Notes: a model not told the origin generated them from the letters alone. DNA of 64,000 nt from a virus (IMGVR_UViG_3300015608_005401:10686-74685); one strand, 5' to 3'. Counted from the first letter of the stretch, positions 36,441 through 63,382 are shown. A program made the numbers and translations.

Positions 36441-36499
36441 AAACTATATATTAAAAATTATTTGGCAAATTAAAACTTTGTTACTATCTTTGTATAAGA

Positions 36500-37640: not shown

Positions 37641-37723
37641 TTAGGTAGATTTAAAACTTCTTTCTATATTTGTATAAAATAATACAGAAAATAACAAAAG
37701 GAACAAAAACTTTTTAATATATA
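37641..37723 (+). promoter_or_regulatory. tandem Bacteroidota sigma-type (TTAGG..TATATTTG) and TTAATATATA promoters of tRNA operon 1
   Basis: -7 box at 37665-37672; TTAATATATA at 37714-37723. Confidence 0.7.
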
Positions 37724-37729
37724 ATAACA

Positions 37730-37828
37730 ATGAGAACAAATCGCACACATAAACATTTTAGTAAATCGAATAAGTGGTTTAGAAACCAGTTCGGTACTGA
37801 AAGTGTATTGCTCTCAAATAAGATGTAA
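37730..37828 (+). CDS. attenuator leader peptide L1 (MRTNRTHKHFSKSNKWFRNQFGTESVLLSNKM)
   Basis: Codons 7-17 are 8/11 His/Lys/Phe/Trp, matching the downstream tRNAs. Confidence 0.8.
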   Translation: MRTNRTHKHFSKSNKWFRNQFGTESVLLSNKM

Positions 37829-38044: not shown

Positions 38045-38686
38045 ATGAAAAAAGAAAAAGTAAGGTATTACTTCTTATATAAGACTACCAATAAAATGAA
38101 TGGTAAATTTTATATAGGAGTACATAGTACAATAAAAATGAATGATGGGTATTTAGGATCCGGTAAAAGACTTAGATACTCGATGAGAAAATATGGAAAG
38201 GAGAATTTTGAAATAGATATATTAGAATTTTTCAATAGTAGAGAACTTATGTTTGAAGCTGAGAGAAACCTTGTTAATACTGATTTAATTAAAAATGAAT
38301 TATGTATGAATTTAAAAGAAGGTGGTATTGGTGGGTGGACAAAAGAACAACAAATAGAGAATGCTAATAGATCTAATATTAAAAAGAAAGAATTGAGAGA
38401 TAATAATCCAGAATGGAGAGGGCTTGAAAAGATAAGAAATTCAGAAAATATGAGAAAATCATATGAGAGAGGAGATAGAGAAAAAAAGCAACCTATGGAT
38501 TGGACTGGTAAAAGACATAAAAGGGAGACTATTCAGAAAATGAAAAAATCCAAAAATGTTGGTAAATTAAACTCTCAATATGGTACAAAGTGGATTAATA
38601 AAGATGGTATTATTAAAAAAATAAAAGAAAATGAACTTGAATATTATCTGAACAATGGATGGATTCAAGGTAGAAAAGGAACCTAA
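38045..38686 (+). CDS. GIY-YIG (Seg-like) homing endonuclease
   Basis: LYKTTNKMNGKFYIGVH..GYLGSG; HKRETIQKM NUMOD3-like; stop codon overlaps tRNA-Phe. Confidence 0.85.
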   Translation: MKKEKVRYYFLYKTTNKMNGKFYIGVHSTIKMNDGYLGSGKRLRYSMRKYGKENFEIDILEFFNSRELMFEAERNLVNTDLIKNELCMNLKEGGIGGWTKEQQIENANRSNIKKKELRDNNPEWRGLEKIRNSENMRKSYERGDREKKQPMDWTGKRHKRETIQKMKKSKNVGKLNSQYGTKWINKDGIIKKIKENELEYYLNNGWIQGRKGT

Positions 38687-38843: not shown

Positions 38844-38913
38844 GAGGGGATAACATAATGGTAGTGTACCGGGCGGAAAACCGGTAGTGTTAGTTCGATT
38901 CTAGCTCCCTTCA
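38844..38913 (+). tRNA. Phe-like tRNA with an 8-nt anticodon loop (GCGGAAAA)
   Basis: GAGGGGA/TCCCTTC stem; D and T arms intact. Confidence 0.55.
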
Positions 38914-38921
38914 CTACAAAT

Positions 38922-39226: not shown

Positions 39227-39895
39227 ATGAAAATTTTAGATAACCTTGATATATCTGATATTCAGAGAAAACTGAATGAGTCTAAATCATTTAGAGAGTT
39301 TCTATTAAAAATAGGATCTTCATCTAATGGGTCTGGTTCATACAAATCTATTAAGAATCAATTAATTAAATTAGGAGTTATAATTCCTGAGTTTAATTAT
39401 GAGAATAAAAATAAAATTAGTAAAAAAATTGATGATGTTGATGTTTTTATAAAAGGTTCTTTTTATAGTAGACAAAGATTAAAAGAAAGAATTATTAAAA
39501 ATAAACTAATTGATTACAGATGTGAGGAATGTGGAAATGATGGCGATTGGAATGGTAAAAATCTAAGCTTACATCTTGAACACAAAAATGGAGTTAATGA
39601 TGATAATAGATTAGAAAATCTAACATTCTTATGTCCAAATTGTCACTCACAGACCGAAACTTATAGTGGTAAAAATAGGAAGAAAAAAGAAAAAAGAAAG
39701 TGTGAGTGTGGTAGAGAAATATTCAAAACAAGTAAAATGTGTTTAGATTGTAACTCTATAAAAAATAGAAAAGTTGAAAGACCGTCAATTGAAAAACTAA
39801 AAGAAGAAGTTGTTGAGTTTGGATATAAAGCTATTGGTAGAAAGTATGGTGTTAGTGATAACACAATTAGAAAATGGATTAAAATAAAAAAGTAA
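39227..39895 (+). CDS. HNH homing endonuclease
   Basis: CEECG..LHLEHKNGVNDDNRLENLTFLCPNCHSQT; C-terminal HTH YKAIGRKYGVSDNTIRKW. Confidence 0.88.
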   Translation: MKILDNLDISDIQRKLNESKSFREFLLKIGSSSNGSGSYKSIKNQLIKLGVIIPEFNYENKNKISKKIDDVDVFIKGSFYSRQRLKERIIKNKLIDYRCEECGNDGDWNGKNLSLHLEHKNGVNDDNRLENLTFLCPNCHSQTETYSGKNRKKKEKRKCECGREIFKTSKMCLDCNSIKNRKVERPSIEKLKEEVVEFGYKAIGRKYGVSDNTIRKWIKIKK

Positions 39896-55937: not shown

Positions 55938-55959
55938 TGGTGTCATTATGATATTAACT

Positions 55960-55996
55960 AACCCAGTCTGACTTATCAGACTGGGTTTTTTGTTTT
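55960..55996 (+). terminator. attenuator terminator T3
   Basis: AACCCAGTCTGA-CTTA-TCAGACTGGGTT then TTTTGTTTT. Confidence 0.9.
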
Positions 55997-56013
55997 AAAG
56001 TTCTTTGAAAATT

Positions 56014-56100
56014 GGGAGTATAACGTCAGCGGCATGTTAGAGCCGCCCCTGAACAAATAGACGTATAGAGGTAACTTGTGTGCAAATCCAGGTACTCCCA
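56014..56100 (+). tRNA. tRNA-like element lacking a conventional D-arm; 8-nt loop ATGTTAGA
   Basis: GGGAGTA/TACTCCC stem, GTGCAAATC T-loop-like segment, ACGTC/GACGT helix enclosing the anticodon arm. Confidence 0.45.
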
Positions 56101-56107
56101 CAAATAT

Positions 56108-56179
56108 GGTCTCGTCGACTAATGGTCAGGTCACCACCCTTTCAAGGTGTAGATGCGGGTTCGATCCCCGTCGAGACTA
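56108..56179 (+). tRNA. tRNA-Glu(TTC)
   Basis: Loop CTTTCAA, canonical cloverleaf. Confidence 0.9.
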
Positions 56180-56186
56180 CAAATAT

Positions 56187-56272
56187 GCTACGGTATGCAA
56201 ACCGGAATAAGCAACCAGACTTTCAATCTGGACATCGAAAGATGTGTGCGGGTTCGAGCCCCGTCCGTAGTA
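56187..56272 (+). tRNA. long-variable-arm tRNA with a TTC (Glu) anticodon
   Basis: GCTACGG/CCGTAGT stem, A73, CCAGA-CTTTCAA-TCTGG, ACATC-GAAA-GATGT variable arm. Confidence 0.8.
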
Positions 56273-56279
56273 CAAATTT

Positions 56280-56362
56280 GGGGATGATGTGACACAGGTA
56301 GTTACACTGGTCTGTAAAACCAGAGCCTTCGGGCGTTGTGGGTTCGAGTCCCAGCCCCACCA
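56280..56362 (+). tRNA. tRNA-Tyr(GTA); 3' side about 3 nt short
   Basis: CTGGT-CTGTAAA-ACCAG, variable arm GCC-TTCG-GGC, ends in CCA. Confidence 0.7.
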
Positions 56363-56365
56363 AAT

Positions 56366-56438
56366 GATGCCATCGACTAACGGCTGAGGTCATCACCCTC
56401 TCAAGGTGAAGATACGGGTTCGAATCCCGTTGGCATTA
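56366..56438 (+). tRNA. tRNA-Glu(CTC)
   Basis: TCACC-CTCTCAA-GGTGA. Confidence 0.9.
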
Positions 56439-56547
56439 CAAATACCTATATTAAAATGGCAAGACCTTTCGATTATAACCCAAGTGGTGCTACAATTTCA
56501 GGTTGTATTTGAAAATAATAATTTAACTACTTTAATTTATAAAAATA

Positions 56548-56609
56548 TTTGACAAGAATAAAAAAAAGTTGTATATTTGTATCAACAAAGAAAGAAAACT
56601 TAATATATA
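56548..56609 (+). promoter_or_regulatory. tandem promoters of tRNA operon 4
   Basis: TTTG..TATATTTG (56572-56579) and TTAATATATA (56600-56609). Confidence 0.7.
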
Positions 56610-56616
56610 GATTATT

Positions 56617-56697
56617 ATGACAAAAGTAAATAACATAGGAATAGCGATTATAGGAGGCGGCGCGGGAGCGTATGTCACTGGCTGGAGTATGTTGTAA
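56617..56697 (+). CDS. attenuator leader peptide L4 (MTKVNNIGIAIIGGGAGAYVTGWSML)
   Basis: 12 consecutive Ile/Gly/Ala codons, upstream of Ile, Ala and Gly tRNAs. Confidence 0.85.
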   Translation: MTKVNNIGIAIIGGGAGAYVTGWSML

Positions 56698-56722
56698 ACT
56701 TTTCTAAAAAGATATTATAACT

Positions 56723-56756
56723 AAACCCAGTCAGAAATGATTGGGTTTTTTGTTTT
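56723..56756 (+). terminator. attenuator terminator T4
   Basis: AAACCCAGTCA-GAAA-TGATTGGGTTT then TTTGTTTT. Confidence 0.9.
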
Positions 56757-56760
56757 ATAT

Positions 56761-56850
56761 TGGCGAGTAGCAGTGGTGTCTTATAAACACTATACCTGTA
56801 GCGGTAACTTGAGATAACTTCAAACATGGGTTCAAATCCCATCTCGCCAA
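56761..56850 (+). tRNA. tRNA-Ile(TAT)-like, no conventional D-arm, long variable region
   Basis: TGGCGAG/CTCGCCA stem, GGTGT-CTTATAA-ACACT, ATGGG-TTCAAAT-CCCAT. Confidence 0.65.
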
Positions 56851-56856
56851 CAAATT

Positions 56857-56930
56857 GGGCCATTGGTGAAGAAGGCTATCACACTTGGTTTGCACCCAGG
56901 AGTCACGAGTTCGAAGCTCGTATGTGTCCA
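56857..56930 (+). tRNA. tRNA-Ala(TGC)
   Basis: Loop TTTGCAC, G3:U70, one bulged base in the acceptor stem. Confidence 0.8.
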
Positions 56931-56992
56931 CAACTGAGAAAACAGTAAATCGTGAGTCAACACTAAAACCATCCCACCAGGATGTAAAACTC

Positions 56993-57067
56993 GCAACATT
57001 GGTGTTTAATGGTTTAGCACATTGCGCTTCCAACGCAAAGGTGCCTGTTCGAATCAGGTATGTTGCT
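56993..57067 (+). tRNA. tRNA-Gly(TCC)
   Basis: TTGCG-CTTCCAA-CGCAA, U73. Confidence 0.9.
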
Positions 57068-57117
57068 CTGAGTAAGGGGTGTCGAACTTTTTAATATATA
57101 ATATTAAAAGGATAGAT

Positions 57118-57864
57118 ATGTTGCACATAATTTATAAAATTACAAACCTAAAAAATGAAAAAATATACATAGGTAAACATTCATGTGAAGACATTAATGA
57201 TGAATATATGGGTAGTGGTAAACTTATAAAAAGAGCAATAAAAAAATATGGAATAGAAAATTTTAAAAAAGAAATTCTTTATACTTTCTATGACGAGATC
57301 GAAGCATATAAAATGGAAAAAAATATAGTAAATGAAGATTTTATAAAAAGAAAAGATGTATATAATGTGATAATTGGTGGGGATCCATTCGAATCAATCA
57401 ACTCAAATGTTGAACTCAGAAAGGAGAAAAATAGAAGAGCAGTCATATCGATGAATAAAATAATATGGAATGATGAAGGAGAAAATAATAAAGAAAATGT
57501 TTACAAAAGTAAACTAAAATGGGTGGGTAAAAATCCACATATAATTTCTTGGAGAAATTTATTAAAAAATAGTCTAAAAAGACTAAATACTAACAAAGGA
57601 TCATCAACAATTAATCTATTAGGATATAGCGCAGAGGATTTAAAATATCATATATCTAGTTTATTTACACCAGGAATGAGTTGGGAAAACTACGGAGAAT
57701 GGCACATCGATCATATAAAACCAGTTTGTTCATTTGATTCTAACACCCCAGTTAGTATTGTCTGTGCTTTATCTAATTTACAACCTCTATGGGCAACAAC
57801 AAGAGAAATAGATGGTATTATCTATGAGGGAAATTTAAATAAAAACAAATTTTATCAAAATTAA
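57118..57864 (+). CDS. chimeric GIY-YIG plus HNH-type endonuclease
   Basis: IIYKITNLKNEKIYIGKH..YMGSG N-terminus; MSWENYGEWHIDHIKP..LSNLQPLW C-terminus. Confidence 0.7.
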   Translation: MLHIIYKITNLKNEKIYIGKHSCEDINDEYMGSGKLIKRAIKKYGIENFKKEILYTFYDEIEAYKMEKNIVNEDFIKRKDVYNVIIGGDPFESINSNVELRKEKNRRAVISMNKIIWNDEGENNKENVYKSKLKWVGKNPHIISWRNLLKNSLKRLNTNKGSSTINLLGYSAEDLKYHISSLFTPGMSWENYGEWHIDHIKPVCSFDSNTPVSIVCALSNLQPLWATTREIDGIIYEGNLNKNKFYQN

Positions 57865-63009: not shown

Positions 63010-63117
63010 ATGACAACAATGAATTTAAATATGAACATGAATCTAACAGTGGTGCTTAATACGTTATGTATTAGACGCTCTGAGGGCTTCGTCATATCTA
63101 AACGATTTGTTGGCTAA
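63010..63117 (+). CDS. attenuator leader peptide L5 (MTTMNLNMNMNLTVVLNTLCIRRSEGFVISKRFVG)
   Basis: Five Asn codons upstream of two tRNA-Asn genes; ATT and AGA codons match the Ile(GAT) and Arg(TCT) genes. Confidence 0.8.
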   Translation: MTTMNLNMNMNLTVVLNTLCIRRSEGFVISKRFVG

Positions 63118-63291: not shown

Positions 63292-63376
63292 CGGTAGGTA
63301 CCCGAGCGGTCTTCAGGGACTAGTCTGATACACTAGGTGAGAAATCACGACGTGGGTTCAAATCCCACCCTACCGA
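63292..63376 (+). tRNA. long-variable-arm tRNA with a GAT (Ile) anticodon
   Basis: CGGTAGG/CCTACCG stem, A73, CTAGT-CTGATAC-ACTAG, GTGA-GAAA-TCAC variable arm. Confidence 0.8.
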
Positions 63377-63382
63377 CAACAT

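Follow-up and report, generated by a model that had tools for sequence, protein, structure and literature searches.

The DNA directly 5′ of three tRNA genes in a huge-phage fragment most likely encodes a transcription attenuator of the ribosome-mediated (leader-peptide) class, by which a phage tRNA operon would be controlled. A short leader ORF with an uninterrupted run of Ile, Gly and Ala codons precedes an intrinsic terminator, which in turn precedes tRNA genes for the same three amino acids, and it is probable that these tRNAs are made only when ribosomes read Ile, Gly and Ala codons slowly. This reading draws on what the sequence itself holds, namely the anatomy of the unit, its alternative pairings and their specificity, the match between leader and tRNAs and its co-variation across genomes. 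It is well supported by a specific antiterminator, by a folding model in which the position of the ribosome is varied, by a gap without room for a promoter and by homologous loci.

The analysed stretch of DNA (the window) is 64,000 nucleotides long and comprises bases 10686–74685 of a 74.7 kb IMG/VR virus record. The record, rated 12% complete by CheckV, thus represents one piece of a very large phage genome. The nearest relatives in a public phage collection are LR745206.1 (634,780 bp) and LR756502.1 (642,428 bp), with ∼76% identity across the tRNA region, and further near-complete relatives are found in IMG/VR (G001, 508 kb; G002, 476 kb; G003, 385 kb). The host presumably belongs to the Bacteroidota, judging from a threefold excess of a TAnnTTTG-type −7 promoter box. 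Five units of the kind described here are present in the window, with leaders at 37730, 42162, 55860, 56617 and 63010. A scan of the tRNA regions of seven other, related phage genomes (385–735 kb) for terminators that lie 3′ of a short ORF and 5′ of tRNAs, in which composition was ignored, yielded 30 more, giving 35 units in eight genomes. The unit whose leader begins at 56617 is laid out as follows.

56549–56581, + strand: promoter-like region (TTGACA, 17 nt, TATATT), overlapping a Bacteroidota-type −7 box, TATATTTG(TA), at 56572–56581
56600–56609, + strand: TTAATATATA motif, 7 nt 5′ of the leader ATG; may be an initiation signal or a promoter specific to the phage
56617–56697, + strand: leader ORF of 26 codons, ATG at 56617 and TAA at 56695–56697
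56635–56670, + strand: putative regulatory run, codons 7–18, all Ile/Gly/Ala; includes segment 1 (56642–56653)
56678–56688, + strand: segment 2, the antiterminator strand CTGGCTGGAGT, ending 6 nt short of the stop codon
56723–56759, + strand: intrinsic terminator, consisting of a hairpin (56723–56748, 11 pairs) and a T-tract (∼56749–56759)
56723–56733 and 56738–56748, + strand: segments 3 and 4, the two terminator arms
56762–56849, + strand: tRNA(UAU), reading the Ile codon AUA; no D-arm, 7-bp anticodon stem, long variable region
56857–56929, + strand: tRNA-Ala(UGC)
56930–56992, + strand: conserved spacer with the hairpin CATCC-CACCA-GGATG, ahead of tRNA-Gly(UCC)
56993–57068, + strand: tRNA-Gly(UCC), the last gene of the unit
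57118–57864: GIY-YIG endonuclease gene, 3′ of tRNA-Gly(UCC)

The original prediction had placed twelve consecutive Ile/Gly/Ala codons at positions 7–18 of the leader, and these are indeed present (ATA GGA ATA GCG ATT ATA GGA GGC GGC GCG GGA GCG; that is, three ATA, one ATT, three GGA, two GGC and three GCG). Translated in all six frames, the window has a single Ile/Gly/Ala run of at least twelve, the runner-up being seven codons long. The proposed check on the probability of the run gives an expectation of 1.3 × 10−4 such runs in the six frames of the window, at a background Ile+Gly+Ala frequency of 0.18 in long ORFs, against the one observed. The match had also been claimed to extend to codon level, and here only part of the claim stands: nine of the twelve run codons are decoded by UAU, UCC or UGC under strict wobble, whereas ATT and the two GGC codons are not. 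For the leader core in the window, 9 of 13 Ile/Gly/Ala codons are decoded by these anticodons, compared with 4.8 expected from synonymous usage in the phage genes; the corresponding values for the block anticodons in the two 640-kb relatives are 8 of 10 (3.8 expected) and 8 of 8 (5.0 expected). Pooled over all 35 units, which are not independent of one another, 280 of 317 codons are decoded by the unit's own block compared with 253.5 expected (p = 5 × 10−5). The codon counts thus suggest an isoacceptor-level match of the run to the tRNAs that is real but partial. In the relatives a Gly(GCC) gene lies farther down the same tRNA block. The leader also favours GCG and GGC, which make up 6–7% of the Ala and Gly codons in the phage genes, and RNA structure may be as important as codon identity for the conservation of the GC-rich GGCGCGGG.

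Between the terminator and the next protein gene there are exactly three tRNA genes, and this content bears out the expectation that the block holds only Ile(TAT), Ala(TGC) and Gly(TCC). The first of them is unusual. Infernal matches tRNA(UAU) at 56761–56850 with 34.8 bits (RF00005 cut-off 29); 15 D-arm positions of the model are replaced by 4 nt, the canonical D-arm is absent and the variable region carries a 31-nt insertion. Its anticodon loop is CUUAUAA, with CUUAUAN in all four homologues, which share the acceptor stem, the 7-bp anticodon stem and the T stem and show compensatory changes in all three (7 of 21 pairs); for these four, RNAalifold predicts no D-arm. The leader had been taken to support function of this D-arm-less Ile(TAT) gene, and the compensatory changes show it to be conserved and structured. 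Assignment of the gene as Tyr(ata) by relaxed ARAGORN was rejected, since it entails an implausible 3-bp anticodon stem, and both Infernal and RNAalifold give UAU. In LR756502.1 the D-arm-less tRNA stands beside a canonical tRNA-Ile(UAU), with the canonical gene first behind the leader.

Several further features of the tRNA regions were observed. A 45–60-nt spacer with the CATCC-CACCA-GGATG hairpin is always found 5′ of tRNA-Gly(UCC), also at loci of relatives (L006, 25457–25502; L180, ∼2774–2838), and could represent a small RNA or a signal for processing. Genes for GIY-YIG endonucleases (two, both slightly below the Pfam cut-off) and an HNH endonuclease lie within the tRNA blocks (57118–57864, 38045–38686 and 39227–39895), and such interspersed genes probably explain the differing content and order of blocks between relatives. 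Two tRNAs in the window, at 56187–56273 (anticodon UUC, Glu) and 63292–63377 (GAU, Ile), are class-II-shaped, 86–87 nt long with a long variable arm, even though their anticodons belong to class-I amino acids; the UUC tRNA is conserved in LR756502.1 (L005, 3096–3181). Within the His/Phe/Trp/Lys block, the tRNA at 38844–38914 has an 8-nt anticodon loop, to which ARAGORN assigns the four-base anticodon GGAA. It recurs at the equivalent site in the 508-kb relative G001 (L175, ∼1299) and may be a frameshift-type or degenerate Phe tRNA. Immediately after the terminator of the Glu/Tyr unit, a tRNA-like element with acceptor-like ends (GGGAGT and ACTCCC) is located at 56012–56100; it gave no match with relaxed ARAGORN or Rfam, and LR756502.1 carries a truncated remnant at the same position. 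Suppressor-type tRNAs with the anticodons CUA and UUA are encoded by relatives (G001, L178 ∼1231 and L175 ∼1221; G003, L191 ∼1033), a hint that stop codons may be recoded in this group of phages. In the window, TAA is the stop codon of all leaders seen.

The terminator hairpin (−14.4 kcal/mol) starts 25 nt past the leader stop codon, and segment 2 pairs with its 5′ arm and first loop base (56725–56734) through ten pairs and one bulge. The predicted pairing of 9 bp, between TGGCTGGAGT at 56679–56688 and ACCCAGTCA at 56725–56733 with A56686 bulged, is present as claimed, and C56678–G56734 adds the tenth pair. The duplex has a free energy of −14.9 kcal/mol, which is equalled by 0.2–0.7% of random window segments. 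In the ribosome-free fold segment 1 pairs with segment 2 and the terminator forms with a probability of 0.97–0.98. Masking 31 nt with a ribosome at codons 8–15 raises the antiterminator to 0.94–0.95 and lowers the terminator to 0.01–0.02, and with the mask at codons 16–18 or at the stop codon the terminator is back at 0.97–0.98 and no antitermination is seen. In this equilibrium model the folds follow the classical 1:2, 2:3, 3:4 attenuator logic. The first tRNA (from ∼56761–56762) starts 13 bases past the hairpin stem and ∼5 bases past the T-tract; this gap is too small for a promoter, and the tRNAs are therefore reached by read-through only.

The pairing is also specific to each unit. For each of the five window leaders the best pairing partner is the arm of its own terminator, the true assignment being the best of 120 permutations, and in the two 640-kb relatives, with seven units each, the true leader–arm assignment is within the best 2 of 5040. 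Pairing of leaders with their own arm is stronger than that with orthologous arms taken from other genomes (−12.2 versus −10.9 kcal/mol, one-sided Wilcoxon p = 0.016), and three diverged units of the Ile/Gly/Ala type, which have different terminators, each prefer their own arm. Chance as the source of the leader–arm pairing was rejected on account of this own-arm preference across units and genomes. Most homologues of the Ile/Gly/Ala unit were retrieved via the terminator sequence, for which reason the terminator arm is invariant among them, and covariation there comes from the diverged units and from one position: the base opposite the first loop nucleotide is C or U with loop G and G with loop C in seven of eight homologues.

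Two kinds of promoter-like signal are found 5′ of the leader. The TTGACA/TATATT pair has 11 of 12 consensus matches and is the joint best within the 10 kb scanned. The overlapping box belongs to a motif, TAnnTTTGTA, with 34 occurrences compared with 10.7 expected, one copy of which lies 42–65 nt 5′ of each of the five leader ATGs. A longer form of the second signal, TTTTAATATATA, has 11 exact copies in the window, at 37712, 38010, 39199, 40268, 42039, 50001, 55674, 57089 and 62993 on the + strand and at 36445 and 51396 on the − strand, and 22 copies compared with 7 expected when one mismatch is allowed. It is positioned 6–20 nt 5′ of leader ATGs, homing-endonuclease genes and tRNA-Met. This distribution suggests that TTTTAATATATA may be a phage-specific promoter, in which case the leader mRNAs would be nearly leaderless. 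A phage-encoded or modified polymerase starting at TTAATATATA might ignore the terminator. The leader ORF has no Shine–Dalgarno sequence, as is usual in Bacteroidota, the presumed host group.

The same design recurs in the other units. Every unit has an ATG, an open frame in which the cognate codons are read, and a stop codon 19–33 nt before the terminator. The assignment of leaders to tRNA clusters is the single best of 120, 5040, 5040, 720, 24 and 720 permutations in six genomes; as these genomes share common ancestry the results are non-independent replicates, with the units being distinct within each genome. Examples of leader cores and of the tRNAs downstream of them are as follows.

Leader core H-K-H-F..K-W-F: tRNAs for His, Phe, Trp and Lys
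Leader core with Ser runs and Arg: tRNAs for Arg and Ser
Leader core with Y and E: tRNAs for Glu and Tyr
Leader core with runs of 5–7 Gln: three to four tRNA-Gln
Leader core K-K-K-K: three tRNA-Lys
Leader core with 16/16 or 18/18 codons from N, L, M, T, V and I: large blocks of exactly those tRNAs

Homologous loci in which the tRNA content is altered have a leader that is altered alongside. In G001 the cluster is fused (Glu, Tyr, Gly, Ile, Ala) and has one leader and one terminator (L176, 838–933), the leader core consisting of 14 consecutive codons for I, Y, G, A and E only. In LR756504.1 (L198) the block comprises Glu, Ala(UGC), Ile(UAU), Val and Gly(UCC), and I, A, V, E or G account for 15 of the 18 codons in the leader core. 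At the level of sequence comparison, nothing supports the proposed Ile/Gly/Ala unit more strongly than these two natural re-sortings. A separate observation concerns the last leader of the window (63010–63117), the orthologue of which in G002 (L181, 911–1018) differs by one residue and precedes tRNAs for Asn, Ile, Leu, Val, Thr and Met; a close relative therefore does have the tRNAs which, from the leader at 63010–63117, are expected past the end of the record.

These comparisons bear on what is sensed. The leader could be translated and the terminator regulated in response to general translation capacity, amino-acid starvation or the timing of infection, for example through read-through by a phage-modified polymerase only, rather than to how well the three tRNAs themselves are supplied. 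The two kinds of promoter motif 5′ of the leader are in keeping with such a broader sensor, 3 of the 12 run codons need other tRNAs, and any slow elongation in the run, including that caused by Ile, Gly or Ala starvation, would yield the same read-through. However, a general sensor does not need a composition that in every genome agrees with the tRNA block and tracks its re-sortings, and the shift of codon choice toward the downstream anticodons also speaks against it; we consider it unlikely.

A mechanism without ribosomes, in which uncharged or total tRNA binds the leader RNA by codon–anticodon pairing and stabilizes the antiterminator in the manner of a T-box, is suggested by the fact that the regulated products are tRNAs, T-box leaders being known tRNA-sensing terminator/antiterminator switches. 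Against this, the in-frame arrangement of ATG, cognate codons and stop codon ahead of the terminator is kept in every unit, the regulatory codons are numerous and stand for several amino acids, where a T-box has a single specifier, and the folds have neither stem I nor the T-box bulge architecture. Searches of the whole window at Rfam gathering thresholds, and of 55950–57100 at E-values up to 10, gave no match to the T-box (RF00230), to riboswitch families or to the leader families (Trp, His, Leu, Thr and similar). A T-box-like mechanism is thus highly unlikely, and the ribosome-mediated attenuator remains our preferred reading.

The leader ATG and TAA are kept in eight of eight distinct homologues, and the 5′ end and the run are in one common frame in all of them. 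Homologous loci that keep the tRNAs and lose the run, which the original prediction had named as counter-evidence, were not found: nine distinct close homologues hold 7–12 Ile/Gly/Ala codons among the twelve at positions 7–18, compared with 2.2 expected. In the 3′ half, GTCA-N-TGGCTG and TATGTT are conserved in seven of eight homologues and yet stand in a different reading frame in the window, where the leader has a 1-nt deletion before the conserved motifs and a 1-nt insertion after them; the translation is V-T-G-W-S-M-L in the window and of the R-Q-W-L-S-Y-V-M type in relatives. Because the nucleotides are conserved though the frame differs, this points to selection on the 3′ half at the RNA rather than the peptide level. 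A search of IMG/VR with the leader motif TAACATA-N18-24-GGCGCGGG gave, among the matches listed, chance matches and no new locus with downstream tRNAs.

The leader might instead be an ordinary small gene, with a terminator of its own, that encodes a hydrophobic micropeptide rich in Ile, Gly and Ala, the tRNAs being made by leaky or constitutive read-through and their match to the leader being incidental. The peptide is indeed hydrophobic and glycine-zipper-like, and its N-terminal part (N-N-I, G-A-G) is partly conserved among homologues. It matches no Pfam family, however, and a functional peptide is difficult to reconcile with a 3′ half that is conserved as nucleotides and read in another frame in the window. 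Moreover, the leaders of the 35 units in eight genomes differ widely in their chemistry (Ser-rich, Gln runs, Lys runs, His/Lys/Phe/Trp) and match their own blocks, the true leader–cluster assignment beats all permutations and leader composition shifts with cluster content. A micropeptide gene with an incidental tRNA match is therefore scarcely credible.

We propose that the attenuator works as follows, inferring translation of the leader, efficient termination and the direction of the response given here. Transcription would start from the promoter(s) at 56549–56609 and the 26-codon leader would be translated at once. With plentiful Ile-tRNA(UAU), Gly-tRNA(UCC) and Ala-tRNA(UGC) the ribosome would reach the TAA and cover segment 2, the hairpin at 56723–56748 would form and RNA polymerase would halt ahead of the tRNA genes. 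Should any of the three charged tRNAs be scarce, the ribosome would stall in the run, melting the 1:2 pairing and leaving segment 2 free to capture the emerging 5′ arm of the terminator, and read-through would allow tRNA(UAU), tRNA-Ala and tRNA-Gly to be made. These products would relieve the stall, and the unit would act as a negative-feedback homeostat for decoding capacity. At least five such units would be present in the phage, the leader of each spelling out the amino acids of the tRNA block behind it. On balance, and with some reserve, we favour the wider view that the units of huge phages together form a modular tRNA homeostat, in which blocks are on only at slow decoding of the matched codons. 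Isoacceptor capacity in the infected cell would thereby be measured, the loss of host tRNAs through anticodon nucleases or host shut-off included, and only the missing tRNAs replaced. Even non-canonical tRNAs such as the D-arm-less tRNA(UAU) would come under this control and would hence be active in translation.

Such an arrangement would be a very direct feedback loop, as the molecule that is regulated is also the one whose scarcity is detected. It would make the purpose of phage tRNAs testable, since the leaders name the monitored codons and codon-usage compensation can be set against the replacement of destroyed tRNAs, and the content of a tRNA cluster would be predictable from its leader alone. 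The design also supports the functionality of odd tRNAs, be they D-arm-less, class-II-shaped or with 8-nt anticodon loops, and synthetic biology may gain from it compact sensors that report decoding capacity in a codon-specific way. Attenuation through leader peptides is found in every textbook; to our knowledge, descriptions of it are confined to synthetase genes and those of amino-acid biosynthesis, and do not extend to tRNA genes or phages. A full-text literature search returned no description of attenuators for tRNA genes, and the Lak megaphage papers do not mention an attenuator, leader or terminator. The distinguishing points are the target and the carrier, namely tRNA genes in a phage, and the sorting of the tRNA repertoire into units by leader.

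The unit has all the defining features of the attenuator class that can be read from sequence: a short ORF, a cognate codon run, a terminator with no later promoter, an antiterminator that a ribosome at the stop codon is predicted to mask and a 1:2 pairing that a ribosome on the run is predicted to open. It resembles the enterobacterial attenuators (trpL, hisL, leuL, pheL, thrL and ilvL) in its short leader with a run of regulatory codons, presumed here to be translated, in its intrinsic terminator and mutually exclusive 1:2, 2:3 and 3:4 pairings, and, as modelled here, in the freeing of the antiterminator strand by a stalled ribosome and its masking by a ribosome at the stop codon. The thr and ilv leaders, which are multivalent with several amino acids per leader, are nearest in logic. 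The use of rare synonymous codons (here GCG and GGC) is a further likeness, the rare CUA codons of the leu leader being a parallel.

The E. coli pheST operon, encoding phenylalanyl-tRNA synthetase, is also controlled by leader-peptide attenuation and is similar in that a gene of the translation apparatus is attenuated rather than one of biosynthesis. Its target, however, is a protein, it senses a single amino acid and it is host-borne, whereas the phage unit would control the tRNAs themselves. T-boxes share with it a terminator/antiterminator decision set by the status of a specific tRNA, but they read uncharged tRNA directly through one specifier codon and with no ribosome, where the phage element is an in-frame ORF, and they control genes for synthetases, biosynthesis and transporters. 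In comparison with the enterobacterial attenuators, the phage element is associated with a Bacteroidota-type promoter and no Shine–Dalgarno sequence, and it is phage-borne and multiplied to five to seven units, each for its own tRNA block. The genes regulated are those of tRNAs here and of biosynthetic enzymes there, and while enterobacterial attenuation is a feedback on amino-acid supply, in the phage unit the product itself would relieve the stall, making it a feedback on decoding capacity.
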